From assembly GCA_963666805.2 (NCBI GenBank), contig CAXXWR010000003.1, positions 12,087 through 44,086 of the forward strand: DNA of 32,000 bases, written 5' to 3'. Each line of letters opens with the position of its first letter. The first letter of the stretch is position 1. This document shows positions 8,949 to 30,225 of this stretch, in pieces. Made by a program: the position numbers and the translations under genes. This DNA is from an uncultured Fusibacter sp. (GTDB lineage: Bacteria > Bacillota > Clostridia > Peptostreptococcales > Acidaminobacteraceae). A model generated the notes under the pieces. The model was not told the origin of the DNA. It ran no database searches and worked only from the letters and a program-made list of their open reading frames with translations.

Positions 8949-8961
8949 CTATTATGACTCC

Positions 8962-9900
8962 TTATTTCAATAAATCTTTAATGGCTGAAAGTGCACCTAC
9001 CCTAGTACACACTTTACCCGCTATTTGATTTGCAAAACGTGAAATAGCAATCATTTTTTCTTTATCCTCTAAAATTGATGGCATATCATTGTATTGCGCC
9101 AATTGGTAGATAACAGCACCTATAAAGGCATCTCCCGCACCGGTTGTGTCTTTTACTTCAATTTTTTCAGTTGTAACGTGTTCATCCCAATGAGGATTAA
9201 AAAGTCTGACGCCTTCTTTTCCAAGTGTAATTGTAAAAGTGGCTGAACTCATATGCTTCAACTCTTGAATGGCACTTTCTAAGTCTGACTGTCCTGTCAC
9301 AATCAAAGCCTCTTCATCACTCAATTTTACCAAGTGTGCTTTTCTTATAAAAGGTAACACTCGATCCTTAAAATCGTCAATATCTTCCTTCCAAAAATCA
9401 TTGCGATAATTGGGATCAAAAACAATCAACTTGCCTTCTCTTTGAGCTTGGTCCAATAGACAATGGTAGGTGTCTTGTAAGGGGCCTTCTAAGAAAGCGG
9501 TTGCTGCTCCAAAATGGATAATTTCAACTGCTTCAAGATGCTTCTGATTAATCCAATCATACTCTAAATCTGCATCTGCTCCACGAACAAAGGCAAATTC
9601 TCGTTCTCCCTCTTCATCTATAGACACAAAAGCCAGCGTCGTAGGCTTTTGACTCCGCTTTAACAAGGCAGTGCTAACACCAAACGTTTCTAGCTCCTCT
9701 TTTAAAAAGTCGCCAAAACCATCTTGACCAATTGACCCTAAAAAATAACACGACCCCTCAAGTGCAGAAATCGTGCAAGCAACATTTGCAGGCGCTCCCC
9801 CTGCTTGCTTATTAAAATGATCTTGATCCTTTAGACTCTTGCCTCTACTGAGTCCCATAAAATCAATTAGCATTTCGCCAACGCATACTATTTTTTTCAT
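8962..9900 (-). CDS. PfkB-family fructokinase
   Basis: 'GEMLIDF', 'GGAPANVA', 'DTTGAGDAFIGA' motifs. 13-nt gap to the GH65 gene. Confidence 0.85.
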   Translation of the reverse strand: MKKIVCVGEMLIDFMGLSRGKSLKDQDHFNKQAGGAPANVACTISALEGSCYFLGSIGQDGFGDFLKEELETFGVSTALLKRSQKPTTLAFVSIDEEGEREFAFVRGADADLEYDWINQKHLEAVEIIHFGAATAFLEGPLQDTYHCLLDQAQREGKLIVFDPNYRNDFWKEDIDDFKDRVLPFIRKAHLVKLSDEEALIVTGQSDLESAIQELKHMSSATFTITLGKEGVRLFNPHWDEHVTTEKIEVKDTTGAGDAFIGAVIYQLAQYNDMPSILEDKEKMIAISRFANQIAGKVCTRVGALSAIKDLLK

Positions 9901-9963
9901 TTTTCCTCCATTAACCGATCTGTCTCTTAAAAAGTGATTCCTGGCTTAAAACTTTCATTTTAA

Positions 9964-10956
9964 TCAAAGACTCTCTCTAATTATAATTTCATAAGGAAGT
10001 TCATAAACCATTAAGGGATTAACAACAGAGCCCTTGATTGATTCCATTAGTACTTGCCCTGCCAGGACCCCCTTTTCAAAGAAAGGTTGCTTTACTGTTG
10101 TCAGAGAAGGCGTTACCATCCGTGACAAATCAACATCATCAAATCCAATAAAGGCAATATCTTCTGGTACCTTATAACCACGCTCAAGTGCATATCTCAT
10201 AGCACCAATTGCCATGAAATCATTAGCACAGAATACGGCATCAATATGATTGTCTTGACCTAAAAGTGCTTTCATACACTGATAACCATCTTCAAATCGA
10301 TAATTGCCAGAGACAACAAGCGACTCATCAAACTGGTTCATCGCCTTCATCTTTTCTTCATAAGCTGCATAACGTGCTTTACCTGACTGTAAATCATTAA
10401 GCGGGCCTCTAATCATAGCGATTTTCTTCCTCTTATTATCTACAAACAACTGAATAATCGCACGAACGGCTTGTCGATTATCTATTTTTATAACAGGAAC
10501 ATCTTTATCAATTGTATCTGTTCCAATCATAACAAAAGGGGTTTCATCAATCCCCAGAGATGCTTTTGTATCATGTTCTTGATCGGAAATCAAAATCAAA
10601 CCATCTATATTTCTATTCAATAACATTTGGACTTGATCCTTTTTCTTATCTTCATCAAAATCAGTTGCCGCAATGACTAAAGCAAATTCAGTATCCCGCA
10701 TAATTGACTCAATCCCTGAAATAATTTCTGCAAAAACAGGATTCGATAAATCCGGAATAACAATTCCAATGAGATTCGAACGTTTTAATGAAAGTCCTCG
10801 AGCAGTTGGACTTGGACGATAGCCTGTCTGCTCGATAACTTTTAAAACACTTTCTTGCGCTGTTTTACTGACGGGTTTAGACTGATTTAAAACCCTTGAA
10901 ACAGTTGCTTTAGAAACCCCTGCTAATCTTGCAATATCATTTATGGTTACTTTCAT
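9964..10956 (-). CDS. LacI-family transcriptional regulator
   Basis: HTH 'MKVTINDIARLAGVSKATVSRVLN' followed by a periplasmic-binding-protein-like core. Start set at ATG 10956 (SD GGAGG upstream) rather than the ORF-track 10974. Confidence 0.9.
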   Translation of the reverse strand: MKVTINDIARLAGVSKATVSRVLNQSKPVSKTAQESVLKVIEQTGYRPSPTARGLSLKRSNLIGIVIPDLSNPVFAEIISGIESIMRDTEFALVIAATDFDEDKKKDQVQMLLNRNIDGLILISDQEHDTKASLGIDETPFVMIGTDTIDKDVPVIKIDNRQAVRAIIQLFVDNKRKKIAMIRGPLNDLQSGKARYAAYEEKMKAMNQFDESLVVSGNYRFEDGYQCMKALLGQDNHIDAVFCANDFMAIGAMRYALERGYKVPEDIAFIGFDDVDLSRMVTPSLTTVKQPFFEKGVLAGQVLMESIKGSVVNPLMVYELPYEIIIRESL

Positions 10957-10994
10957 GTGGCCTCCTTCAAGCAATATCTATTTATATAACTATA

Positions 10995-11855
10995 TCACTT
11001 GATAGCACCAGATACCATACCTTTGATGATGTGTTTTTGTCCAAAAATAAAACCAACAATAATAGGGGCAGCCGCCATAAGGACAGCAGTCATAATTAAA
11101 TCCCATTTTTTAACAAACGAACCAGCAAAGGCTCTGATCGCTAAAGGAATAGTTTGAATCTCTTGACCAACACCTAATACCAATGATGGTAAGAGGAAAT
11201 CGTTCCATATCCAAATAGCATTTAGGATACAAATAGTTACCACAATGGGTTTAAGAATTGGCATGACAATATAAAAGAAAATTTGTGGTTTTGAACACCC
11301 ATCTATCCAAGCTGCTTCCTCTAATTCCTTAGGGATTGATTTGATAAAACCATGAAACATGAAGACGGCAAGTGGCGCACCAAAACCAATATAAGCAAAA
11401 ATCATCCCATGATACGTTCTCAACATTGAAAGACCTGTCACTTCTGAAATGGTCCTAAAGAGTGAAACAAGTGGAAACATAACCACTTGGAAAGGAATAA
11501 CCAGACCTGCTACAAAAATAGTGAAAATAACAGCAGATTTTTTGCTTTTATTTCTGACTAATACCCAAGCAGCCATTGCAGAAAAAACAGCAATTAAAAC
11601 CAAGGAAGTCACAGTAATAACAACGGATGAAAAGACACTTGAAGCGTATCTTATACTCGGACTGGTCCAGATGGTTTTAATGTTCGTAAACAATTGTCCC
11701 CAATTTTGAGGCAGAGCAACTGGATCACTAATAATTTCTAATGACGCTTTGGCTGAATTGATAATAACGATAAAGAAAGGCGCCATTGTGAATATAAACA
11801 TGAGTACAGTAAGAATATAAATAATCGTTTTAACAAAGTTTTTTCTCAATTTCAT
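10995..11855 (-). CDS. carbohydrate ABC transporter permease (MalG-like, CUT1)
   Basis: Six hydrophobic segments. EAA-loop 'EEAAWIDGCSKPQIFFYIVMP'. The start ATG overlaps the upstream stop by 1 nt (ATGTAATG). Confidence 0.9.
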   Translation of the reverse strand: MKLRKNFVKTIIYILTVLMFIFTMAPFFIVIINSAKASLEIISDPVALPQNWGQLFTNIKTIWTSPSIRYASSVFSSVVITVTSLVLIAVFSAMAAWVLVRNKSKKSAVIFTIFVAGLVIPFQVVMFPLVSLFRTISEVTGLSMLRTYHGMIFAYIGFGAPLAVFMFHGFIKSIPKELEEAAWIDGCSKPQIFFYIVMPILKPIVVTICILNAIWIWNDFLLPSLVLGVGQEIQTIPLAIRAFAGSFVKKWDLIMTAVLMAAAPIIVGFIFGQKHIIKGMVSGAIK

Positions 11856-12763
11856 TACATTTCCACCTCTTTCCTTTTATTATAGTAAAGTTGAGCGATA
11901 GAAATAACAGAAAGCAACAAGAAGAATATAATCGCACGTGCTTGCCCTTCTGCCATATTATTATACTTAAAGGCAACATTATAGATATGAACCGCTAATA
12001 ATTCGGTGGAGTTCACGACTGTACCTTGGAACATTTCTGTCGGCCCCCCATTGGTTAAAGCGATGATAATATCATATTGCTTAAATGAATTAATGAGTGT
12101 TAAGAAAGAGGTTATTGTAAAGGCTTGTGCAATAAGCGGCAAGGTTATATTCTTGAATTTATGCCAGAAATTAGCACCGTCTATTTCTGCTGCCTCAATA
12201 AGTTCTTGTGGAACATTTAAAAGAGCAGCAACATAAATCATCATAATGTAACCTGCATATTGCCAAGTAAATGCAAAAATTAATCCAAAAAGAGTCCAGT
12301 TCGGATCAGCTAATAATAAAAGATTTTCTAACCATTCTATACCTAAGACCGTTCCAATTCCAGGGACGATGCTTTTAAATATAAATTGCCAAATATAACC
12401 TAATACTAAGCCTCCAATAAGGTTTGGTACAAAAAATCCAGCTCTAAAAACATTTCTAAACTTAATTTCTCGCGTCACCAAAACCGCCAATAATAGTGAA
12501 ATAACATTGATTGAAATCACACTTAATATTGTAAAGAGAAATGTTCTAATGAGCGAATATCTAAAACTAATATCTGAAAACATGTTACGATAATTTTGAA
12601 GCCCTACAAAAGAAGGCTTAAGTCCTTGTACAGCTGTCCAATCTGTTAATGAGTAATAGATTCCCATGATAAAGGGAATAATGACTACCAGAGAGAAAGC
12701 CAAAAGAGCCGGTGTTAAAAATCCCCAGAAAACAAGTTTTTCCCTTGATTTTCTACTTTTCAT
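11855..12763 (-). CDS. carbohydrate ABC transporter permease (MalF-like, CUT1)
   Basis: EAA-loop 'IEAAEIDGANFWHKFKNITLP'. Multi-TM protein. SD AAAGGAGG. Confidence 0.9.
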   Translation of the reverse strand: MKSRKSREKLVFWGFLTPALLAFSLVVIIPFIMGIYYSLTDWTAVQGLKPSFVGLQNYRNMFSDISFRYSLIRTFLFTILSVISINVISLLLAVLVTREIKFRNVFRAGFFVPNLIGGLVLGYIWQFIFKSIVPGIGTVLGIEWLENLLLLADPNWTLFGLIFAFTWQYAGYIMMIYVAALLNVPQELIEAAEIDGANFWHKFKNITLPLIAQAFTITSFLTLINSFKQYDIIIALTNGGPTEMFQGTVVNSTELLAVHIYNVAFKYNNMAEGQARAIIFFLLLSVISIAQLYYNKRKEVEM

Positions 12764-12816
12764 GATTTCCTCCTTTATGAGAAAGAGGCTTTTTTTGTCG
12801 TTCTATGATGGTAAAG

Positions 12817-12840
12817 AAAAGGGCAAAATTTTGCCCTTTT
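12817..12840 (-). terminator. intercistronic stem-loop/partial terminator after the binding-protein gene
   Basis: aaaagggcaaa / tttgccctttt perfect palindrome, followed on the minus strand by TTTTCTTT. This arrangement is typical for raising the SBP:permease transcript ratio. Confidence 0.55.
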
Positions 12841-12858
12841 CTCAAAAGCCCTAATTAA

Positions 12859-14106
12859 TTATTGACCGAGTTCTTCAATCTTTGCAGCAATTTGATCGAT
12901 AAAGCCTTGTTTATCAATATCACCTTTTGCATAACTTTCATAGATAGGTCCTAAAGTTCCCATACCAAAACCATCTGGCATGTCATTTTGTAACCAAGTA
13001 TAAGCAGTCCCCTTAGATAACCATTCTGCTGCATCAGCTGATAATGGTGTATCTGGTTTCAATTTTACATTTGTAAATGCTGGAACCATTTTAGCCTTAT
13101 TAACCATATAGTCATGACCTTTTTCATTGGTTGCCATGTAGTTTAAGAACGCTTTAGCTTCATCTAAATTTTTGCTGTCTTTATTAAGAACATAGAACGA
13201 AGGTGCACCAATAAAGATGCCATCAAATGTTCCTTTTACAGCAGCATGTGGTGCAAATCCCATTGGGAAATCTACGCCATTTTCAACTAACCAAGGATCA
13301 ATCCAGTTTCCTTGATGGATAAAGACAGATTTACCAGTAGCAAATTGTCCAACTTGTGCATCGTAATTACCTGTTAATAGGACACCTTCATCAGAATATT
13401 TAAAGAGCATCTCAACCCAGTCTGCATATTCTGTTAATCTTTCCATGTCCACTTCACCTTTATTTAATTTGTCTAAAACAGTTGTATCACCATAGTCTAG
13501 TCCTTCTGATAAGTAACCGTTAAAATTATGTAGTCCAGTTACCCATCTTAAATCCGGACCAGCACCCATTGCTACAACAGAATCAATCCCTAATTCATCT
13601 TTCATACTGTCAATTTTTTCAAATGCTGCCTTGTAACCTTCTTGTGAATTAAGTGTTGCAGGATCAACACCTGCTTGTTCTAATAAATTTTTGTTGTAAG
13701 CGAGTCCCCAAGCTTCTACTGATACTGGGAATCCATATACTTTATCATCTACTTTGAATTCAAGATCTGTTAAATCAATCCATTCATCACCATCAAATGG
13801 TGCTAATTTTGATTCCCAAGTTTTGTAACCGCCCATTCCTTCAATAACAAAGATATCAGGCTGTCTGTCTGTTTGGAACTCAGCTTTTAAAGTTTCCGCA
13901 TAAGGTGTGTCTCCACCCGACGTCTTAATGGTGACTTTAACACCAGTTTCTTCTTCATAAGCTGCTGCAAAAGCTGTTAATTGTTCACCAATTTCAACCT
14001 TATTTTGATAAATAACAACTGATTTGTCTTCTTGTTGGCCAGTACATCCCCCGAAAAGTCCTAGTACTAAGACCAATACCAATAATAAACCAAATGCTTT
14101 TTTCAT
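12859..14106 (-). CDS. ABC sugar-binding lipoprotein (family 1 extracellular solute-binding protein)
   Basis: Start set to ATG 14106 (SD GGGGGAG). Lipobox 'LGLFGGC'. SBP_bac_1-like sequence throughout. Confidence 0.9.
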   Translation of the reverse strand: MKKAFGLLLVLVLVLGLFGGCTGQQEDKSVVIYQNKVEIGEQLTAFAAAYEEETGVKVTIKTSGGDTPYAETLKAEFQTDRQPDIFVIEGMGGYKTWESKLAPFDGDEWIDLTDLEFKVDDKVYGFPVSVEAWGLAYNKNLLEQAGVDPATLNSQEGYKAAFEKIDSMKDELGIDSVVAMGAGPDLRWVTGLHNFNGYLSEGLDYGDTTVLDKLNKGEVDMERLTEYADWVEMLFKYSDEGVLLTGNYDAQVGQFATGKSVFIHQGNWIDPWLVENGVDFPMGFAPHAAVKGTFDGIFIGAPSFYVLNKDSKNLDEAKAFLNYMATNEKGHDYMVNKAKMVPAFTNVKLKPDTPLSADAAEWLSKGTAYTWLQNDMPDGFGMGTLGPIYESYAKGDIDKQGFIDQIAAKIEELGQ

Positions 14107-14204
14107 TGTTGCTCCCCCTTCTGTGGAATTATAGAGATGGTCATTTGCCATCTACAAGATTTTTTTACCCTAATCATATTTTTATAAAACTTAAAAGATA
14201 GACA

Positions 14205-16034
14205 TTATTGGTCTATTTTTTTCAGCACGAGAAATTCAAGTGGACCTAACAGTATCGTTTCCGCAAATAAATCTACTGTTTTTCCTTGAAGACATTCTTC
14301 ATAAGTCCCATCAATCCCATTGCGTTTAAGATCTGTTGTATAAAGCCATTGTCTGTCTTCAGACAGATTAAAGGCAAGTAGGTATTCATCTTTTTCATTA
14401 AACTGATGAACCACCAAAACATGATCATTAGACTGAACTACTATTCTTTCGGATTGGCGATGTTGAATTTGTCCTCTTAACTTGATAAGTGCTTTTATAT
14501 GATTAAATATCATGGCTTGCTCTTGAGTAGGATGTGTTACCATATTCCAATCAAAAGCGCCTCGGTGTAACCACCTTGAGTCATGACATTTATGAGGGTC
14601 CAATTTATAAGAATAATCATTGAGACGACCTACTTCGTCGCCACTATATATCATTGGAATGCCTTTTCTTAATATAAAAAGAGCATTCATTAAATAAATC
14701 CGTTTAAGTGCCAATTCTTTTTGATAAGCATCTTTCTGTTCAAGTGCTTTTTCAAGCCCACATAAGCTTGCAAAAGTGCCTGAATTTCTAGCATCCATGG
14801 TTTCAGCATTAAACTCATAGAGTTCACCTTTTGCAAAACTATCTTTAACTGAACCGTAATAGAAATCAATTAGAAACATCTTATGTGCTTGAGGATCAAA
14901 CCCTAGATGTCTTAGATTATCTTCATTAAGTCCCCAACCAATATCATCGTGACATCTCGCATAATTTATCCAATGTGCATCTCGAGGTAATTTCCAATCT
15001 GGCATCATAGCCAAATGCCTTGCGTCTCTAGTTGCCAATGCATTCCATAGTTCAACCATATAGGAAGCATTATAAAGCACATGACATTCTGGAAAGGAAT
15101 CTGTTCCAAAATATTTGATGATTTCTTCAGGTGTCACAATGGCTTCTCCCAGTAAGGCTGTTGACGGTGCAAAAACTTCACTAATTTCTCTCAGCAAGTT
15201 CATGAGAATATGAACTTCCTTTAAATTACGACTAGATGTTCCTAGTTTTTTCCATATATATGGAATCGCATCTAGTCTGATCATATCAATGCCAATATTC
15301 ATCATAAAGAGCATTTGTTCAACGACCACGTTAAAAACCTCTGGATTATCATAATTTAAATCCCATTGAAAAGGATAAAAAGTCGTCATAACCCATTTCT
15401 GAACAGCGTCTAAATAGGTGAAATTACCTGGCGCAATTTTTGGAAAAACCTGATTAAGCGTTTTTTCAAACGTTTTTGGGATATCATCTGTTTCATAAAA
15501 TCTATAATAGGATTGATAAGGCTCAATGCCTTCTAGTGCTTTTTGAGCCCACTCATGATCATTTGCCGTATGATTGAGAACATAATCTATTGCCACTCTA
15601 ATGCCTCGGTCGTGACATTTTTTAATAATGCGAATAAAAGTTTCCATATTCCCCAAGCGAGGTTCAATTTCTTGATAAGAACTTACCGCATAACCGCCAT
15701 CATTATCACCTTGTCTTGTCTTAAGCAAAGGCATAAAGTGAATGAGTGTTACACCCAAGTCTTCAAAGTAGTCAATTTTCTTTTCAAAAGCATTTAAGTC
15801 TCCAGAAAAAAGGTCAACATAAAGCATCATGCCAACAGTTTTCCCATCAGATAGCCACTTGGTGCTATTCAAATCTCTGGCTCTGAGTATTTCAGATCTT
15901 TGGTTATAATATGTATCGAGCAGTTCCAATAACTGATCAAAAGCAGTATCTGCACCTGGATACAAGCGTGTGTATTGTTCATATAGATATTTCTTCCTTA
16001 AAGATAACCCTGCTTCAAATTTTGATTGACTCAT
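14205..16034 (-). CDS. cytoplasmic GH13 amylosucrase-like enzyme (amylosucrase / sucrose hydrolase type)
   Basis: Start set to ATG 16034 (SD GGAGG). GH13 regions I-IV: 'DYVLNH', 'GIDMIRLDAIPY', 'LLGEAIV', 'YARCHDDIGW'. The last two closely recall amylosucrase 'SEAIV' and 'SHDDIGW'. No signal peptide. Confidence 0.8.
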   Translation of the reverse strand: MSQSKFEAGLSLRKKYLYEQYTRLYPGADTAFDQLLELLDTYYNQRSEILRARDLNSTKWLSDGKTVGMMLYVDLFSGDLNAFEKKIDYFEDLGVTLIHFMPLLKTRQGDNDGGYAVSSYQEIEPRLGNMETFIRIIKKCHDRGIRVAIDYVLNHTANDHEWAQKALEGIEPYQSYYRFYETDDIPKTFEKTLNQVFPKIAPGNFTYLDAVQKWVMTTFYPFQWDLNYDNPEVFNVVVEQMLFMMNIGIDMIRLDAIPYIWKKLGTSSRNLKEVHILMNLLREISEVFAPSTALLGEAIVTPEEIIKYFGTDSFPECHVLYNASYMVELWNALATRDARHLAMMPDWKLPRDAHWINYARCHDDIGWGLNEDNLRHLGFDPQAHKMFLIDFYYGSVKDSFAKGELYEFNAETMDARNSGTFASLCGLEKALEQKDAYQKELALKRIYLMNALFILRKGIPMIYSGDEVGRLNDYSYKLDPHKCHDSRWLHRGAFDWNMVTHPTQEQAMIFNHIKALIKLRGQIQHRQSERIVVQSNDHVLVVHQFNEKDEYLLAFNLSEDRQWLYTTDLKRNGIDGTYEECLQGKTVDLFAETILLGPLEFLVLKKIDQ

Positions 16035-16056
16035 TTTTAATCCTCCGTATAAATCC

Positions 16057-16085
16057 ATTTTAGGAAACCGGTTTCATCTTGTCAA
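16057..16085 (-). promoter_or_regulatory. sigma-A promoter TTGACA-17-TAAAAT with palindromic LacI/CcpA-type operator in the spacer
   Basis: Minus strand: TTGACA (16085-16080), 17-nt spacer, TAAAAT (16062-16057). The spacer contains TGAAACCGGTTTCC (16076-16063), with perfect core GAAACCGGTTTC. Confidence 0.75.
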
Positions 16086-16357: not shown

Positions 16358-18358
16358 CTACGAAAATTGAGAAGGATGCTTTTCAAAGAAATCAAATTTA
16401 GGTGGTATTTCAACGATTTGATGGTTTGTAGGATCGTCCATATGGGCAGTAATCGGTTTCATAATATAGTCCCATGACCATACTGTTTCATTTAAATTAA
16501 GGTGCTCAAGCGCACGTTCAGCACTTTCAGGCACAATTGGATGAAGAAGTGTCAAGGTTGATTTAACCCCATAGAAGGCATCTGCCAATACTTGTTGTCT
16601 CATTTCATCACTGTCTGCATCATCTGCAGCCTTCATTTCTCTTGCCCAGAGTTTACTAAGGGATCTGATTAAACTATCCATGGTATAAATCACACGATGA
16701 AACTCTTGTTTAGACATATTGAGTTCATAGTCTAATACGCCCTTTTCAACAATCGCACGAACCTCTTCAGAAGGATCTAAAGTTGGTACTTTTCTATCTG
16801 TGTATTTTTGTGACGTATAGAAACATGAACGCATTAAACGATTAAAAACGTTAGTGAGTAAATTGCCATCTTTAAGAACCACATCTGCCTCATTAGGATC
16901 TGCAGACGGATCATATGGTTTAGGACTAAAACTAACACTCTTTTTAGATAATCCCAAACTTAAAAAGTGCATTCTAAGTTGATCTTTTGTATAGTGTGAT
17001 AACAATTCATCTGCCATAGGTGGTTTGATATCACTTGAGCTGCTGGCTTTTGAATCTAAGAACAGTAAATGACAATTCGATACTAAATGTGGAAAATTAA
17101 TAGCATCTATTTCTCTTGGATCATCCTTTTGATAACCCAGGTAAGACATTAACATAGCCATTTCTGCTATACCATAAAAATAAATATTATCTTCTCCAAT
17201 AAATTGGTAAACTTGAGAACTATCTTCTATCCACCAATCTTTCCATTCAGAAGGATCTTTGCCGATTGATTCAAGATATGTTTGTGTAAAAGACACAGGT
17301 GCCCAAAGCGATTCTGGCCATACCCAGAAAGTCAAATCCTCTAAGCCGTCCTTATTAGGTACCGGAACCCCCCACTCAATATTGCCTGATAGTCTAAACG
17401 GCACAAGTGTCTTACCTGTACGGTATCTTATACTATTGGCATCTAACCGCCCTCTAGCTATATCTCTCGCATCTAAAGAGTCAAAGACATAGGTCACCGA
17501 TGGCTTTTTAGGTTCATCTATAAGTTGAGCATGGTCTAAAGTCATATTGGCTTCGAGCATTTTATCATATTCTTTACGTGTAATATAAATTTCTGGATCT
17601 TTCAAAAATTCATCGGTTACTTTGATGACCATTGGTCTCACTTTACGCTCTTTACGCATCTTATTGACCATTTTTTTCATTTGATCTTGGTATTCATCTA
17701 AAACATAATACCAATTCACTACTTCTTTAAGTTCTGGTTTTTTCCCAGAAAGCGTTGAAATAGGATCAACTAATTCATTAGGCATATATTGATGCCCTAG
17801 GGCACATTCATCTGCATAAGCTTTATCAGATTGACAGCCTTCAAAAGGACATTTCCCAACGACTTGTCTACCATTTAGAAAAACTTCTTCATCATGATCA
17901 TAGAATTGTAATGTGGAAAGTTTTTTAAGATAGCCACCTTCATAAAGTTGGTTAAAGAGTTCCTTCGAAACAGCCTTATGGACTTCTCCACTTCTTCCGT
18001 AAGCTGATGAAGCAAATAAACTAGGTGCAACATCATAATCACTTAAAGTTTGTTTTTGAAGGGTATGAAAATGATAGACGTAGTCTTCTAAATTTTCATA
18101 TTCTAGTTTTTCACCTTCATGTTCATCACAATATTTCTTATAACTGGCCAAAATAGGAGAACCATAGCAGTCAGTTCCCGAAACGAAAATGACATTTTCT
18201 TCGCCAATTCTGTCTTTTAAAAATCTAGCATAGGTATCTGCATGAATAAACACGCCACCTATGTGTCCAAAGTGCAATGACTTATTGCCATAAGGCATGC
18301 CCGCGGTAATCACAGCTTTTTTGGGGAAAACCGGTCTCGGTCTTTTAAATGGTTTCAT
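16358..18358 (-). CDS. metG: methionyl-tRNA-synthetase-fold class I aaRS homologue, divergent (would be auto-annotated methionine--tRNA ligase)
   Basis: 'MPYGNKSLHFGHIGGVFIHADTYARFL' (HIGH), 'GTDCYGSPI', zinc knuckle 'GKCPFEGCQSDKAYADEC', 'WGVPVP', 'FWVWPES', 'FIGEDNIYFY', and 'KASSS' at the KMSKS position. SD GGAGG. Monocistronic between the T-box and its terminator. Confidence 0.75.
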   Translation of the reverse strand: MKPFKRPRPVFPKKAVITAGMPYGNKSLHFGHIGGVFIHADTYARFLKDRIGEENVIFVSGTDCYGSPILASYKKYCDEHEGEKLEYENLEDYVYHFHTLQKQTLSDYDVAPSLFASSAYGRSGEVHKAVSKELFNQLYEGGYLKKLSTLQFYDHDEEVFLNGRQVVGKCPFEGCQSDKAYADECALGHQYMPNELVDPISTLSGKKPELKEVVNWYYVLDEYQDQMKKMVNKMRKERKVRPMVIKVTDEFLKDPEIYITRKEYDKMLEANMTLDHAQLIDEPKKPSVTYVFDSLDARDIARGRLDANSIRYRTGKTLVPFRLSGNIEWGVPVPNKDGLEDLTFWVWPESLWAPVSFTQTYLESIGKDPSEWKDWWIEDSSQVYQFIGEDNIYFYGIAEMAMLMSYLGYQKDDPREIDAINFPHLVSNCHLLFLDSKASSSSDIKPPMADELLSHYTKDQLRMHFLSLGLSKKSVSFSPKPYDPSADPNEADVVLKDGNLLTNVFNRLMRSCFYTSQKYTDRKVPTLDPSEEVRAIVEKGVLDYELNMSKQEFHRVIYTMDSLIRSLSKLWAREMKAADDADSDEMRQQVLADAFYGVKSTLTLLHPIVPESAERALEHLNLNETVWSWDYIMKPITAHMDDPTNHQIVEIPPKFDFFEKHPSQFS

Positions 18359-18520
18359 TACTTAACGCCTCCACATCATTATTTTAAATCCACTAATAAA
18401 GTGAAAAATAGATCCATAAAAACATTGCTCTTGAATGATTTACAACTACAATCGTTTGGATTCATCTATTTGCTTCATATATTATGTTTTCTTTCAATGG
18501 TTTACTTCAATTTTAATAAT

Positions 18521-18808
18521 AAAAAACGCCCCTACATGCTTTTAAACATGCAGGGGCGATAAACTGTCACAGATTCGTCACAAGTCCTCTATCGCGGTAC
18601 CACCCTAATTTGGTCTCAGCGAGTATTTAACTCTTCTCCTTTAACGGTGAGTTGCCGTCATTATATCCGTCCTTAAACATCCAAAATGAAGCTCCAAGTC
18701 TTGGTTCGTGTTAACGCCAGTATTTCCTTCTCAGCATCAGAAATTCTCTGTGACCTTAATTAACATTACTCTTCTCTTCTTCGCCTTTAAAAGAATTATA
18801 AAGGTCTG
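18521..18808 (-). promoter_or_regulatory. T-box riboswitch leader (transcription attenuation type)
   Basis: Minus strand: K-turn, AGUA/GAA S-turn, AG bulge AGAGA, distal loop GCUGAGA, F-box CCGUUA. T-box AAUUAGGGUGGUACCGCG lies at 18610-18593. Terminator CGCCCCUGCAUG...CAUGUAGGGGCG plus U6 lies at 18559-18521. Confidence 0.9.
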
Positions 18809-18814
18809 TCTTTT

Positions 18815-18843
18815 AAAAGTCAAGGTGATTTCAAGGCTAAATC
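18815..18843 (-). promoter_or_regulatory. sigma-A promoter of the T-box leader
   Basis: Minus strand: TTGACT (18843-18838), 17-nt spacer, TATAAT (18820-18815). Confidence 0.8.
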
Positions 18844-20725: not shown

Positions 20726-22426
20726 CTAAAGTATTTTTAAAAATATAGATACAATTGACTCATCAAATTGAGTCCCTGCGTTAGCGCTTATAATCGCTTT
20801 AGCTTCTTCAATAGATTTTCCCTTTCGATAAGGCCTATCAGAAACAATCGCATCAAAGGCGTCTGCAATGGCAATGATTTTAGCTCCGAGAGGAATATCA
20901 GATCCTCTAAGTCCTTCTGGGTATCCTTTACCATCAATACGTTCATGGTGATGATAAATAATAGGAATAATTGCTTCTAATGATCTAATCGGACTTAAAA
21001 TATCTCTTCCTTTCTCAGGATGATTCTTAATAATATTATATTCTTCATCCGTTAGAGGGCCAGGTTTCAATAAAATGCGATCTCTAATCCCAATTTTACC
21101 GATATCATGTAGTTTAGCCGCAAGAACAAATTCATTTACTGTACTTTGAGGTAATTGTAAAGCCTCTGAAATTTTTTGTGTCCATTGAGTTACTCGCTCT
21201 GTATGACCTTGGGTTATATGGTCTCTTGCCTCAAGTGCTTTAATTAAGGAGTTAATCGTTGTAATCATATATTCATTTTCAAGCGCCATATCTCTATATT
21301 TTTCAACAATCATATGTTCCACTTGATTAATCACAACATCCACTTTAAAAGGTTTTACAAAATAATACTCTACACCGAGTGCCTCGCCTTGTTTTTTATT
21401 ATAGCGACTATTAAGCGTACTCATAATCATAACTTTCGTATGGGCAATAGGTGCTGTTTCTCTCACTTTCTGGATCATTTCATAGCCATCCATAATAGGC
21501 ATATTAATGTCAGTTATAATGACGTCTGGTTTTTCTTGGGTTGCCATTTCATACCCTTCCAGACCATTACTGGCGACTGATACATTATAGCCTCTCCTGA
21601 CTAAACCGATTTTCAAAACATTCTGAATCATCAAACTATCTTCAACAATTAATACTTTTTCATTGTAGCGTTCCTTGACATAATACTGCCCAATCTTATT
21701 CAATACTTTTTCACCTATCAATGGCTCTACCAAGTAGTCATCAGCTCCCATAGCATACGCTTGCTGTAAAGTATTCTTGTTAGCATCATTCGTCATGATA
21801 ATAATCGGAATGGCGTATTCTCTATAGTACATTCTGATTTCTTTGCACAATTGATAGCCTGACATATCAGGTAACTCTAGTGATAATATAACTACACTTG
21901 GCATCATTAACTTCATTTTTTCTAAGGCTTCAATACCATCTTGCGCGTGCATAACTTGATAAGGACTGTTGTCCATTAACATTTTAATATGCGTATGTAT
22001 TGGGGGTCTTGCATCTACAAAGAGAACCATTTTTTTGGAACGTATTCTATGCTTTAAATAAGCCCTATTACTTACTTTATTATTTACTAAATCTAAGTAA
22101 TGCTGAATCCCCTTTTTAATATGATCCTCGTCTGTTCCAACGATAAAATGAAAAGCCTGATCTGATTTCACTGGCATTATATTTTCATAGACCACCAAGA
22201 TATCGCTTTCCATATGATAAAGGGTATTAATAATCCTTTTAAATTTATGAATACTAAAAGATAGGGCTTTTTCTTCAATAAGAAAAAAATCACACTGCAA
22301 AGTACCTATTGAACTTTCAAAAATAATATCTTCTTCTATAAAAAAATGCTCTATACTAGATGCAGTTAAACACGCATGAACAATGCGTTTAAGTGATTTC
22401 TCTTTAATTAAACAACCAGCATTCAT
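20726..22426 (-). CDS. response-regulator-type c-di-GMP phosphodiesterase: N-terminal unknown/pseudo-REC, pseudo-REC, REC, HD-GYP
   Basis: Start set at ATG 22426 (AGGAAG 8 nt upstream; the ORF track uses GTG 22435). Canonical REC 'KVLIVEDS...DVIITDINMPIMDG...MST...FVKPF'. HD-GYP motifs 'HDIGKIGI' and 'HHERIDGKGYPEGL'. Confidence 0.9.
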   Translation of the reverse strand: MNAGCLIKEKSLKRIVHACLTASSIEHFFIEEDIIFESSIGTLQCDFFLIEEKALSFSIHKFKRIINTLYHMESDILVVYENIMPVKSDQAFHFIVGTDEDHIKKGIQHYLDLVNNKVSNRAYLKHRIRSKKMVLFVDARPPIHTHIKMLMDNSPYQVMHAQDGIEALEKMKLMMPSVVILSLELPDMSGYQLCKEIRMYYREYAIPIIIMTNDANKNTLQQAYAMGADDYLVEPLIGEKVLNKIGQYYVKERYNEKVLIVEDSLMIQNVLKIGLVRRGYNVSVASNGLEGYEMATQEKPDVIITDINMPIMDGYEMIQKVRETAPIAHTKVMIMSTLNSRYNKKQGEALGVEYYFVKPFKVDVVINQVEHMIVEKYRDMALENEYMITTINSLIKALEARDHITQGHTERVTQWTQKISEALQLPQSTVNEFVLAAKLHDIGKIGIRDRILLKPGPLTDEEYNIIKNHPEKGRDILSPIRSLEAIIPIIYHHHERIDGKGYPEGLRGSDIPLGAKIIAIADAFDAIVSDRPYRKGKSIEEAKAIISANAGTQFDESIVSIFLKIL

Positions 22427-22574
22427 TTTATGCACTTCCTTTATAATGACTTAAATGATACATACCCCAACTGGCCTTTATCATAACGGTCTTCTTAATT
22501 TTAAGGCTCTACTTGCAACATATAAAATAATATATGATAAAATAGAAATAAAAAAACTATGAAGGAGTTGCTTT

Positions 22575-27492: not shown

Positions 27493-30225
27493 CTATTTTA
27501 AATTAAAGCGATCAATTAATGTTTCCATACTCATTGGCTTCGCCCCATAATAACCTTGATAAAAATCACATTTTAAATTTCTTACAAAGTCTAGTTGTTC
27601 TGCCTCTTCAATCCCTTCTACAACAATTTTAAGTCCAAGTTCTTTCCCCATACTGATAACTGCTTTGATAATTTTACCGTCATCTTTGTGAGGATAGTCT
27701 TCAATAAACACTTTATCAATTTTAAGCTCTTGAGCTTGTAATTTCTTTAAATATCCCAGAGAAGAATAACCTGTTCCGAAGTCATCAATAGACACTTCAA
27801 TATGCTCTCGATTGCATTTTTTTATAGCTTCATTAACCACTTGAAAGTCTTTAATTAAAGTCGTTTCCGTTATTTCAAAACACATCTTAATGCCTCTTTC
27901 CATTACTCTTTTCGCCGTTAAAATGATACGGTCTAAAGTCTCATTATTGGAAAATTCTATTCCCGAGATATTGACTGACAATCTTAATTGACAGTCAATC
28001 ATAAAGTGCTTGTCCATTAAATCATCGATTATTTCTAAGACTCTAATTGCCAATTGATGGATCTGTTCCGATTCTTCCAAAATAGGAATAAAAACATCTG
28101 GCGAAATAAGACCAAGTTCTTCATTTTTCCACCTTACTAGAGCTTCAAATCCCATTATTTCATTGCTATTAAGTGAAAATTGAGGTTGAAAGACAACAAA
28201 AAATTCGTCTCTATAAAATGCTTTTTCCAAATGTTTCCTCAAATTTTTTTCTTGTTTTAGCAAGTCTTGATATGAATCATCATAAATTAAATAAGAACTT
28301 TTCTTCAACTTAATCAAGGCTTCTAAAGCAATGACAGATTGGATGATCGACTCCATAATAGGTTCTGTTGTATGGTAAGCAACTCCTACTTGAAAGCTCA
28401 AATCAAATTGATTAAGGCCCATGGTATGTCTCATCTTAATGAAATGCTTTTTAAGCAAAGCAATCAAATCTTCAACACACATTTCTTGCTGATTTTGATA
28501 GTTTTCAAGGTGAGGATATTCGTGAGTCATCAAAACCATCAAGTCTGTTCTTGGAATGGCAACCGTGCTCATTAAGCCTTCCTCTTTTAGGGCATTTTGA
28601 AAGTTTTGAACAAATTGGCTATGAATATTTTGATTATTTTCAAGAATTTTTTTACCACTCCCAAGCAATTGCAGTGAGAAAATAAAAAAACCTTTCACAT
28701 CTTGATTAAGACTCACTTGTTGGGCAATCTTTTCAAACGATTCTTCATCCAAGTAAAAAATATTAGAATGAATTGGTTTGAAGGGACTCACTAAAGAGTC
28801 ATCTAACTCTGGATTTGAATAAATGCCAATATAATAAATAACCTTATCTTTTGAATCTCTGAGCACTTTTACTGTAAGATGTTTACAGATAAGTTGATGT
28901 CCTGCTGTTTCATTCCAAACATTTCCGTTCCACAAAATAGCTTCTCCAATTTCTTTTTTAAAGAAGCTTAGATTGCCCTTAAAAATGGTATTCATTTCTA
29001 GTCCACTGACATCAGAAAAACGATAACCAAAAATTTTTTCAAAAATATTGTTAACATAAACGATTTTCTTACTTGCATTTGCTATCATTATCCCCACATG
29101 AGAATTATCGGATATATAAGCTGACGTTAAGAGTGCAATTTGATGCCTTTCTTTGATTTTTAAGTACAATTGAATCAAATAGGCAATTATAGCACTTAAT
29201 AGGATGACTAGCAAACTTATAGGAATCAGATATTCTACCGAAGAATAATAGAGAAGTTTAAGATTAGTTTGGTCATAATAACCTAGTAAAAACCAAGACG
29301 TCTGGGCGTTTTCAAAAATATAATGTCCATTGTTATGGGGCATCACAGGATATATCGCATATTTTTGATCCTGATTCGAAAAATTAAAGATTGTATCCCT
29401 TGATTCAAGATTAATCAAACTAACCATTTGATTAATCTCGTCACGATAACCTTCTTTAACTGTCAAAGAAATCTCTGAATAATCATTTTCATTCTCATGA
29501 TTAAGTGACCAATAATTATTGGAGTCAATAAGGCCATAATTTTTATAGGCATCTTGCTTCATCCCATAGGATTCTACCACCTTAAGATAATCTAAACCAT
29601 CTACATTGACGATAATAATTCCCTTTTCACGCCCTTGCCTATCATACAATTTGACAGCAAATCTAATGGTCGGTTCATAAGGCAAAACAATAACACCTTT
29701 TTCAATATTAAGGTCAAAATCTGATATATAAAGGTCCTCATTTCCCATCTCCATAGCATTAGTAAAATAGTAGCGATTTGACTTGTCTTGCAACGCATTA
29801 TCTGCTACTACAGCTATCCCCTCATCAGTCTTATTGAGACGTATTTTTTCTTGACCTGTTTCATCCAAAAGTCTAATTTGAGTCAGAGCATTTTTGTTTT
29901 CACTATATGTATAAAATAAAGATAAAAGTGCTTCTTGGTAATCTTTATTTTGGTCATCATTAATATAATTTATAACTTCCACTGTTTTTGATAATGTCCC
30001 TAAATCTAAATACATTGAATGGATTTTATCTTCCAAATGATTTTCCATAGAATAAAGTGACTGGTTCATTTGAATATTCCATTCCTTATTCAACTGTTCT
30101 AACCGGTCTCTAGTAATATAGTAAATGACTCCCAACATAAGAACCGCGACAATGATACTGATTAGGATTGTTCTTAGCATTTGCACTTTAGACATAACAA
30201 CTTCATCTATTAATAAGTGTTTCAT
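27493..30225 (-). CDS. membrane sensor c-di-GMP phosphodiesterase: TM - Cache-like extracellular domain - TM - PAS - degenerate GGDEF - EAL
   Basis: TMs 'ILISIIVAVLMLGVIYYI' and 'LIPISLLVILLSAIIAYLIQLYL'. EAL catalytic set 'EALVRW', 'SVNISG', 'EITET', 'DDFGTGYSS', 'KIDK', 'EGIEEAEQ', 'QGYY'. The GGDEF position reads 'PRTDLMVL'. SD AAGGAGG. Confidence 0.9.
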   Translation of the reverse strand: MKHLLIDEVVMSKVQMLRTILISIIVAVLMLGVIYYITRDRLEQLNKEWNIQMNQSLYSMENHLEDKIHSMYLDLGTLSKTVEVINYINDDQNKDYQEALLSLFYTYSENKNALTQIRLLDETGQEKIRLNKTDEGIAVVADNALQDKSNRYYFTNAMEMGNEDLYISDFDLNIEKGVIVLPYEPTIRFAVKLYDRQGREKGIIIVNVDGLDYLKVVESYGMKQDAYKNYGLIDSNNYWSLNHENENDYSEISLTVKEGYRDEINQMVSLINLESRDTIFNFSNQDQKYAIYPVMPHNNGHYIFENAQTSWFLLGYYDQTNLKLLYYSSVEYLIPISLLVILLSAIIAYLIQLYLKIKERHQIALLTSAYISDNSHVGIMIANASKKIVYVNNIFEKIFGYRFSDVSGLEMNTIFKGNLSFFKKEIGEAILWNGNVWNETAGHQLICKHLTVKVLRDSKDKVIYYIGIYSNPELDDSLVSPFKPIHSNIFYLDEESFEKIAQQVSLNQDVKGFFIFSLQLLGSGKKILENNQNIHSQFVQNFQNALKEEGLMSTVAIPRTDLMVLMTHEYPHLENYQNQQEMCVEDLIALLKKHFIKMRHTMGLNQFDLSFQVGVAYHTTEPIMESIIQSVIALEALIKLKKSSYLIYDDSYQDLLKQEKNLRKHLEKAFYRDEFFVVFQPQFSLNSNEIMGFEALVRWKNEELGLISPDVFIPILEESEQIHQLAIRVLEIIDDLMDKHFMIDCQLRLSVNISGIEFSNNETLDRIILTAKRVMERGIKMCFEITETTLIKDFQVVNEAIKKCNREHIEVSIDDFGTGYSSLGYLKKLQAQELKIDKVFIEDYPHKDDGKIIKAVISMGKELGLKIVVEGIEEAEQLDFVRNLKCDFYQGYYGAKPMSMETLIDRFNLK

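Follow-up and report, generated by a model that had tools for sequence, protein, structure and literature searches.

Here, we describe a T-box leader and the gene that it precedes in a stretch of 32,000 nucleotides of DNA (the window) from an uncultured Fusibacter sp. (Bacillota, Clostridia; contig CAXXWR010000003.1 of assembly GCA_963666805.2). The gene encodes a class I tRNA ligase–type protein derived from methionyl-tRNA synthetase (MetRS), one of a family that we call group A. We find that the codon with which the leader is predicted to read its tRNA is CAA, for glutamine, and that this glutamine codon is conserved in the leaders of its orthologues. From promoter to ribosome-binding site, the leader reads as a complete expression unit, with a T-box and an antiterminator/terminator pair. 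The features are as follows.

18795 to 18823, minus strand: promoter of the sigma-A/sigma-70 type, TTGACT-17 nt-TATAAT (11 of 12 consensus positions; best site of the strand; a consensus match only)
18549 to 18790, minus strand: T-box leader (riboswitch) of the MetRS-like gene (RF00230 match)
18689 to 18786, minus strand: Stem I, comprising K-turn, lower helix, specifier loop with S-turn (AGUA / GAA), upper helix, AG bulge, and distal loop (sequence reading, Rfam, and covariation)
18701 to 18703, minus strand: predicted specifier codon CAA (Gln), C18703-A18702-A18701 (Rfam codon columns and orthologue conservation)
18593 to 18606, minus strand: T-box sequence AGGGUGGUACCGCG (Rfam covariance model), in which UGGU at 18602-18599 would pair with the tRNA 3' end NCCA, U18599 lying opposite the discriminator
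18552 to 18560, minus strand: 3' strand of the antiterminator, AUCGCCCCU (covariance-model structure), its partners being AGGG and GCGAU of the T-box sequence
18521 to 18558, minus strand: intrinsic terminator, a 14-bp stem at 18558-18527 followed by U6 at 18526-18521 (the only terminator-like site in the region)
18368 to 18372, minus strand: ribosome-binding site GGAGG (read from the sequence), 9 nt 5' of the ATG at 18358
16358 to 18358, minus strand: gene for the 666–amino acid MetRS-derived class I tRNA-ligase paralogue of group A (profile, alignment, and model evidence)

A T-box leader upstream of a MetRS-like gene

The Rfam covariance model for the T-box, RF00230, matches the leader over its full length (model positions 1 to 219) with 94.6 bits and an E value of 9.4e-20. 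It is the sole Rfam family matched across the 32-kb window, and no additional family is matched in the spacer between the terminator and the start codon. Orthologous leaders score 94 to 121 bits against the same model, for which the gathering score is 93 bits. About 7 nt lie between the promoter and the beginning of the leader; the position of the transcription start is deduced from the promoter.

The two arms of a switch are both apparent. The antiterminator and the terminator share bases, since the 3' strand of the former (18560-18552) runs into the 5' arm of the latter (18558-18547). In computed folding, the antiterminator reaches −17.3 kcal/mol, with a 7-nt bulge, UGGUACC, while the terminator reaches −25 kcal/mol (z = −7.4). 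From its sequence, the leader is predicted to be a classical transcription-attenuating T-box riboswitch. In the window, an untranslated spacer of ~150 nt (18373-18520) separates the terminator from the start codon. Several orthologues have long spacers (L005, L006, and L023), and the T-box sequence can lie up to ~470 nt from the start codon, as in L006.

A pattern scan of one genome per GTDB species finds that at least 590 species of Clostridia encode the family, and 80 of these loci were fetched. A T-box at the Rfam gathering score lies directly upstream of the gene, and is co-oriented with it, in 28 of the 80 loci; in four others, Stem I is the same and long insertions follow it.

Stem I covaries across orthologues

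The 5' side of the K-turn is formed by G18785, G18784, and C18783, then GAA, then G18779 and A18778; its 3' side is formed by G18694 and A18693, then G18692, C18691, and U18690. Above it, a lower helix of three pairs joins G18776, A18775, and G18774 with C18698, U18697, and U18696. The 5' strand of the specifier loop, AAGAGUA, holds the AGUA half of the S-turn. The upper helix pairs UGUUAA with UUAACA, and is followed by the AG bulge AGAGA at 18749-18745 and the distal loop GAUGCUGAGA at 18738-18729. On its 3' side, the specifier loop reads CGAACCAAGA (18708-18699), which we parse as C-GAA-C-CAA-G-A.

This anatomy had been drawn in an earlier note on the same DNA, from the letters of the leader and by analogy with the glyQS T-box. 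It proves correct base by base, and the same helices covary across 32 orthologues. In the alignment of these 32 sequences, which has 21 consensus pairs in Stem I, compensatory changes are seen in 16 of the 21. Paired cells amount to 92.1%, compared with 37 to 48% when the partners are slid by one to three columns. The covariation score is 0.64, compared with at most 0.16 in the slid controls, and none of 500 shuffles reaches it. Thus, the boundaries of the specifier loop are not an artefact of one fold. Single-sequence folding by minimum free energy does not reproduce the T-box fold of Stem I (z = −0.4), as expected for a structure made of non-canonical motifs, and we therefore rely on covariation instead.

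A glutamine specifier codon

Relative to the Rfam consensus, the lower helix lacks one base in its 5' strand. As a result, the 3' loop strand comprises nine bases and offers four candidate registers, and orthologues are needed to decide between them. In the RF00230 alignment, the consensus 'GAA a uuc a' is matched by 'GAA C CAA G' in the window and by 'GAA A CAA G' in orthologues, so the codon columns hold CAA and not AUG. Before the CAA stand GAA (18707-18705) and a spacer, C18704; after it come G18700, a conserved purine, and A18699, which is unpaired and variable.

Orthologous leaders agree with this register. Over 33 leaders, the window included, the codon is CAA in 28 and CAG in 5, and the next base is G in all but one (32 of 33; leaders L040 and L044 are identical and count as one independent case). 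Vallitalea pronyensis, an isolate with a complete genome that lay outside the original sample (L082), has a 118-bit T-box that reads GAA-A-CAA-G, upstream of the orthologue at 2834615-2836600 of CP058649.1 (assembly GCA_018141445.1). With this leader, the totals over 34 are 29 CAA and 5 CAG, with G as the next base in 33. The unpaired 3' strand thus has the pattern GAA, N, CAA or CAG, G, N, the CAG leaders being written more exactly as GAA-(N)-CAG-G/U. The specifier is kept as CAA or CAG across at least four clostridial families. Only in this register are all of the observed changes synonymous, which identifies the specifier as glutamine. We hold with high confidence that the predicted riboswitch is specific for glutamine.

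The earlier note had claimed that the specifier loop contains no AUG, so that the T-box would sense a tRNA other than tRNA-Met. Both points stand: no AUG occurs in the 18708-18699 region of the window, and every orthologous leader has CAA or CAG, never AUG, as its conserved codon. The note's preferred codon, CCA (Pro), which followed from the 'GAA-codon-purine' pattern of glyQS, does not survive; this register reads ACA, GCA, or CCA in orthologues (Thr, Ala, or Pro) and is not conserved. These leaders have one extra base between GAA and the codon, a base also present in the Rfam consensus. Among the alternatives that the note had listed, CAA (Gln) is borne out, while AAG (Lys) and ACC (Thr) fail because the changes among orthologues are non-synonymous there.

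Other readings of the loop were tried and rejected. In the CCA (Pro), ACC (Thr), and AAG (Lys) registers, the variation is non-synonymous, the next base is not a conserved purine, and leaders with UGGC in the T-box sequence do not suit a tRNA with A73. An AUG does occur at the junction of helix and S-turn in many orthologues, within A-U-G-A-A, where it consists of the closing A-U pair and the G of GAA. It is not conserved (ACGAA, GUGAA, UUGAA, AAGAA, and CCGAA also occur) and is absent from the window.

The unpaired base between the conserved purine and the lower helix (18699 in the window; column 111 of alignment A2) is an extra position that varies freely; the base after the conserved G is C in 21 of the 33 leaders, G in 5, A in 4, and U in 3. 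In TBDB, glutamine is among the rarest T-box specificities. The TBDB register rule favors whichever bases lie immediately 5' of the bulge end, and by default the last four loop bases are taken as codon plus purine. These leaders may thus be mislabelled as Lys (AAG) in databases, and automatic specifier callers of this kind would label them Lys.

The discriminator-facing base

A second part of the leader bears on the identity of the tRNA. The base of UGGN that faces the discriminator is U in 18 leaders (plus L082) and C in 10 (plus L029), and it is never A or G. The window has U, whereas its closest relatives, L002 and L003, have C. Bacterial tRNA-Gln carries G73. A mixture of C and U is what pairing with G73 predicts, by Watson-Crick or wobble pairing, while A73 pairs with U only. 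The predicted partner therefore fits G73 of tRNA-Gln and argues against the A73 tRNAs for Lys, Pro, Thr, and Met. The earlier note had singled out this base of UGGU and had called it uninformative; it is informative once the orthologues are compared, since all have U or C and are compatible with G73. In Escherichia coli, A73 is an identity element of tRNA-Lys, and a change from A73 to G73 makes that tRNA partly glutamine-inserting (PMC9976931). The discriminator likewise belongs to glutamine identity (PMC9976931). No tRNA gene was found in the window, and no tRNA-Gln gene in the fetched orthologue loci, where the nearby tRNA genes are those for Thr, Leu, Pro, and Arg(CCG).

A MetRS-derived family distinct from MetRS

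The protein encoded downstream of the leader matches Pfam PF09334 (tRNA-synt_1g, MetRS) with an E value of 1e-61. Its sole Pfam matches are tRNA-synt_1g, tRNA-synt_1, and a weak Anticodon_1. All MetRS equivalog cutoffs are missed: it scores 223.8 bits against a cutoff of 587 for NF001100, 191 against 336 for TIGR00398, and 68 against 598 for NF008900. There is no match to PF00749 (tRNA-synt_1c), glnS, or gltX, and NCBIfam release 20.0 has no family-specific model for group A. Relatives are named 'class I tRNA ligase family protein' (NCBI) or, loosely, methionine--tRNA ligase. An AlphaFold (AF2) model of the protein is confident (pLDDT 83, pTM 0.86). Its top PDB matches in a Foldseek search are all MetRS (TM 0.65 to 0.8), the best being that of Pyrococcus abyssi (1rqg; E = 2e-29).

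An exhaustive HMMER search of 1.84 billion cluster representatives separates three sets of sequences.

Group A, full-length members: 38 to 54% identity to the window protein; 420 to 790 bits
Group B, full-length outliers: ~30% identity; 160 to 250 bits
Ordinary MetRS: lower identity; at most 160 bits, with the match split in two by an insertion of ~70 amino acids

Group A is, as judged from these comparisons, a compact family separate from MetRS. Identity among relatives across Clostridia is 52 to 76%.

The class I Rossmann catalytic core of MetRS is retained. The HIGH motif is present as H29-F-G-H32, the zinc knuckle as C170/C175/C185/H189, and the Asp that binds the alpha-amino group as D63. 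The second signature is changed, to K437-A-S-S-S441 (KASSS in place of KMSKS); in the MetRS of P. abyssi, too, its second Lys is missing (KFSTS). Residues ~495 to 640 form a helical anticodon-binding domain, which gives the weak Anticodon_1 match and is confidently modelled. The insertion seen in the HMMER matches is an alpha/beta domain of ~70 amino acids (residues ~255 to 325; window 17384-17596), folded as strand-helix-strand-strand-helix in the AF2 model. This domain, which matches nothing in Pfam and is confined to groups A and B, may contact the tRNA.

Among the residues that differ are those expected to recognize the sulfur of methionine and the CAU anticodon. In the E. coli MetRS-methionine complex, H301 takes part in recognition of the methionine sulfur. 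The corresponding position in group A is Tyr395 in 81 of 81 sequences, and the position of E. coli W305 is Glu399 (E in 65 and Q in 16 of the 81). In the alignments, each of the solved MetRS structures displayed has His at the first of these positions and an aromatic residue at the second. The VW-xD-AP segment of MetRS is remodelled to an invariant VWPESLWAP, while for E. coli Y260 two alternative alignments of the equivalent residue are possible. Group A also lacks an equivalent of E. coli W461, the Trp of the 'PW' motif, which stacks on base C34 of the anticodon. The side chains of methionine and glutamine are nearly isosteric, so a polar pocket of Tyr and Glu/Gln would be a plausible conversion of a methionine site into a carboxamide site.

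The description of the gene as one of MetRS fold with an altered pocket, made from the open reading frame alone, is thus confirmed, by scores far below the MetRS cutoffs and by the replaced His and Trp of the pocket. From a non-Met T-box and a diverged MetRS-fold protein, the same note had suggested a repurposed synthetase, which is a reasonable reading of the two.

A sister group in Bdellovibrionota

Group B (P0157, P0176, P0187, P0200; L081:8001-9938) is found across Bdellovibrionota, in Bdellovibrio, Bacteriovorax, Halobacteriovorax, and Oligoflexus. Its members are 27 to 29% identical to the window protein. They have in common with group A the inserted domain, the VWPESL.AP segment, and an F-Y for the His, and have Q at the W305 position. 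They also keep the canonical PYANGPLHLGH, GTDDHG, and KMSKS, and read 'PH' where MetRS has 'PW'. Group B scores below the MetRS equivalog cutoff (311 to 391 versus 587 bits), and some sources name its members methionine--tRNA ligase. The gene context of group B was uninformative, as was that of V. pronyensis.

Genomic context of group A

Little of the neighborhood is conserved among orthologues. In the window, the gene is flanked by a Na/Pi cotransporter gene and by a sugar-utilisation cluster. None of the other genes of the window encodes an aminoacyl-tRNA synthetase (aaRS) or an amidotransferase; they serve sugar utilisation, signalling, and transport. One neighbor recurs: a co-oriented gene for glutamyl-tRNA synthetase (GluRS; TIGR00464) lies directly upstream in 9 of the 80 loci, with a gap of 15 to 30 nt in six of them. 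All nine are Ruminococcus or Oscillospiraceae types without a T-box. The gene for isoleucyl-tRNA synthetase (IleRS) adjoins the MetRS-like gene in four loci. We regard the GluRS adjacency as modest, lineage-restricted support for a housekeeping role in translation tied to the Glu/Gln system.

The loci in question are L032:1282-2937, L050, L061, L069, L074:1494-2945, and L076, and also L060, L068, and L072. The adjacent GluRS is of two kinds, a standard one of 483 amino acids (497 bits) and a divergent one of ~550 amino acids with an N-terminal extension, which at ~290 bits is barely at the gltX cutoff.

A predicted inducible route to Gln-tRNA-Gln

T-boxes normally control genes that restore the charging or supply of the amino acid that they sense, and the enzyme would thus most likely aminoacylate tRNA-Gln. 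The catalytic core and the anticodon-binding domain are both kept, which makes acylation of tRNA-Gln the most economical reading. We therefore propose that a T-box with a glutamine specifier controls a MetRS-derived enzyme that aminoacylates tRNA-Gln, with glutamine as the likelier amino acid and glutamate as a possible one. We give this proposal a probability of roughly 0.55. For the enzymatic part taken by itself, that is, action on tRNA-Gln, we would accept somewhat better than an even chance. If the enzyme does act on tRNA-Gln, then glutamine is about twice as likely as glutamate to be the amino acid that it attaches.

We infer both the tRNA-dependent antitermination of the leader and the substrates of the enzyme from sequence. 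In the mechanism that we envisage, transcription would start at the strong sigma-A promoter, and Stem I would capture tRNA-Gln(UUG) through codon-anticodon pairing with CAA. When that tRNA is uncharged, its free 3' end, G73-C-C-A, would pair with UGGU in the T-box bulge. This second contact would stabilise the weaker antiterminator over the stronger −25 kcal/mol terminator and allow read-through into the gene. Charged tRNA-Gln could not make the second contact, and transcription would stop. The enzyme, which has no homology to glutaminyl-tRNA synthetase (GlnRS), would thereby offer an inducible supply of Gln-tRNA-Gln.

Several observations weigh against this proposal. Most orthologues sampled (48 of 80) have no T-box, and the Rfam score of the window's own leader only just exceeds the gathering score. 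UGGU, as found in the window, requires a G-U wobble with G73 unless the hosts have A73. The pairing with GluRS occurs in a single order, and one or two events may account for it; given the four loci in which IleRS is the neighbor, aaRS genes may simply cluster. Furthermore, group B may be the ordinary MetRS of Bdellovibrionota. If so, the pocket changes that it shares with group A would be compatible with methionine, and only the Gln T-box, the changes specific to group A, and the lost anticodon Trp would still speak for a new substrate.

A further step, which we take only tentatively, is that group A might represent a third, independently evolved way to Gln-tRNA-Gln, in the form of a class Ia, MetRS-derived glutaminyl-tRNA synthetase predicted in hundreds of Clostridia species.

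Alternative explanations

The enzyme could instead put glutamate on tRNA-Gln, as an analogue of the tRNA-Gln–specific GluRS2 that would feed the amidotransferase GatCAB. A Gln T-box senses only whether tRNA-Gln is acylated and would suit any enzyme that acylates it. The indirect route is also the one used by most Firmicutes (PMC2494555), GluRS is the neighbor in nine loci, and a MetRS-fold domain can bind a glutamyl-adenylate analogue (PDB 9l8v). The pocket, however, has an invariant acidic or amide residue (E399 or Q) together with Y395, and no new basic residue is evident; its charge would thus be wrong for glutamate, and a carboxamide would fit better. Moreover, hosts with a GluRS gene beside this one would not obviously need a second Glu-charging enzyme. 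We consider this explanation unlikely, if the best of the alternatives.

A little less probable again is that the protein is still a MetRS, of an atypical or auxiliary subtype shared with Bdellovibrionota, whose expression a Gln T-box couples to glutamine or nitrogen status. MetRS is indeed the nearest family by both sequence and fold. The same pocket changes are present in group B, where they are conserved phylum-wide, and members of both groups sometimes carry the name methionine--tRNA ligase. Against this, every MetRS equivalog cutoff is missed by a wide margin, and the sulfur-recognising His and the C34-stacking Trp are both lost. We know of no T-box with a specifier conserved for an amino acid unrelated to the aaRS that it controls, and here CAA or CAG is conserved in at least four clostridial families. 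A MetRS under the control of tRNA-Gln would, moreover, not respond to methionine starvation.

A tRNA-independent role is improbable, and more so than either of the preceding two. Here, the protein would be an amino-acid ligase or adenylating enzyme like the PyrN-type MetRS-like domains and would produce a metabolite related to glutamine, with the T-box as a gauge of glutamine shortage. That some MetRS paralogues work as ligases beyond translation was predicted (PMC2922099), and one such domain has been solved with a glutamyl-adenylate analogue (9l8v). Yet the window protein is no nearer to 9l8v than to ordinary MetRS. It has no cupin domain, and no lysine N6-monooxygenase neighbor occurs among the recurrent clusters of the window, the 80 loci, and L082. 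The helical anticodon-binding domain is full-length and confidently modelled, the neighborhoods are housekeeping-like (GluRS, IleRS), and the identity of the family across Clostridia is typical of a translation enzyme.

The weakest rival, and a very improbable one, is a T-box specific for lysine, or for glutamine and lysine both, through the AAG that immediately precedes the final unpaired base of the loop: T-boxes with two codons are known from Clostridium acetobutylicum, AAG stands in that register in 28 of 33 leaders, and the register is the TBDB default, but the other five leaders read AGG (Arg), the base that follows is no conserved purine, the UGGC of eleven leaders cannot pair with A73 of tRNA-Lys, and the codon columns of the Rfam model hold CAA rather than AAG.

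Relation to known systems

The T-box as such is ordinary. What is unusual is the combination of a rare Gln specifier with a synthetase family of another lineage, conserved across several clostridial families. The leader matches the full architecture of the T-boxes of aaRS genes (RF00230; Bacillus subtilis tyrS and glyQS), and like them it lies upstream of a gene of class I tRNA-ligase fold. It differs from them in its rare specifier, in controlling a gene of the MetRS family rather than the Gln/Glu family, and in one additional unpaired, variable base that separates the conserved purine from the lower helix and displaces a naive register.

For an enzyme that would serve as an inducible alternative GlnRS, the closest parallel in function is the lysK T-box of Bacillus cereus, which controls a class I lysyl-tRNA synthetase (LysRS) beside the housekeeping class II LysRS (PMC2916919). 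In both cases, the gene under the T-box encodes a protein with no homology to the usual synthetase for the amino acid concerned. Unlike the window enzyme, for which activity is predicted, LysRS1 has established activity and belongs to a family already known.

With MetRS (PF09334, TIGR00398, NF001100; 1rqg, 1f4l), group A shares the fold, the HIGH motif, the zinc knuckle, D63, and the anticodon-binding domain. It lacks the C-terminal Trbp111/EMAPII-like domain and adds the inserted domain of ~70 amino acids. GlnRS and GluRS2 (class Ib, PF00749) are alike in the job proposed here, the acylation of tRNA-Gln, and have no sequence relationship to group A; if the proposal is true, the window enzyme would be an independent class Ia solution to tRNA-Gln acylation. 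The cupin-fused hydrazine (N-N bond) synthetases (PyrN, 9l8v) provide a case in which the MetRS scaffold has been respecified away from methionine, in PyrN towards glutamate. In contrast to these cupin-fused proteins, the window protein has no cupin domain.

Our full-text searches of PMC and bioRxiv, and the T-box surveys and aaRS reviews consulted, turned up neither a Gln T-box upstream of a MetRS-like gene nor a MetRS-fold enzyme for tRNA-Gln. A T-box is one of the few RNA sequences that name the substrate pathway of the gene that they control, and here it names glutamine for what databases call a MetRS or simply a 'class I tRNA ligase family protein'. Annotations of the group A gene are probably wrong in hundreds of genomes. 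Whatever the enzyme turns out to be, a conserved mismatch between T-box specifier and synthetase family is unusual and needs explaining.

If the tentative reading of group A as a glutaminyl-tRNA synthetase is true, it would overturn the view that tRNA-Gln is charged solely by GlnRS or by GluRS plus an amidotransferase, and would parallel the class I/class II duality of LysRS. An enzyme of this family that charges tRNA-Gln would be a new kind of synthetase for a standard amino acid, reached by isosteric respecification of the pocket and a retargeted anticodon domain, and would bear on the long-debated evolution of Gln-tRNA formation. The family would span Ruminococcus and Lachnospiraceae of rumen and gut, with many members under a tRNA-Gln T-box. 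It might also be an attractive scaffold for genetic-code engineering and a possible narrow-spectrum target in Clostridia.

Other observations at these loci

Two contigs of one Herbinix metagenome-assembled genome (MAG), L023 and L026, each hold a member of the family, preceded in each case by a separate Gln (CAA) T-box; this pair is either a real duplication or the product of a mixed bin. Members at 54 to 55% identity also occur on short contigs of MAGs assigned outside Firmicutes, namely, L013 (labelled as an Atribacteria MAG), which has the Gln Stem I too, and L039 (labelled as an Anaerolineaceae MAG). Their placement probably reflects bin contamination or recent transfer. Strong T-boxes (124 to 127 bits) are found on the opposite strand at L034:2618-2851 (minus strand) and L053:999-1233 (minus strand). 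The one in L034 serves a divergent IleRS gene that adjoins the MetRS-like gene, which has no T-box there.

In the window, an apparent sugar-utilisation cluster of the maltose/trehalose type (6675-16058, minus strand) lies just downstream of the MetRS-like gene and on the same strand. It includes genes for a GH65 phosphorylase (6675-8948), a solute-binding protein (12859-14151), and an alpha-amylase-family/TreS-like enzyme (14205-16058). Given the gap of 300 nt, the cluster is probably a separate unit. Two genes of cyclic-di-GMP signalling are also present, both on the minus strand: one at 20726-22435, with two receiver-domain matches and an HD-GYP-type domain, and one at 27493-30225, for a sensor-PAS-EAL protein.

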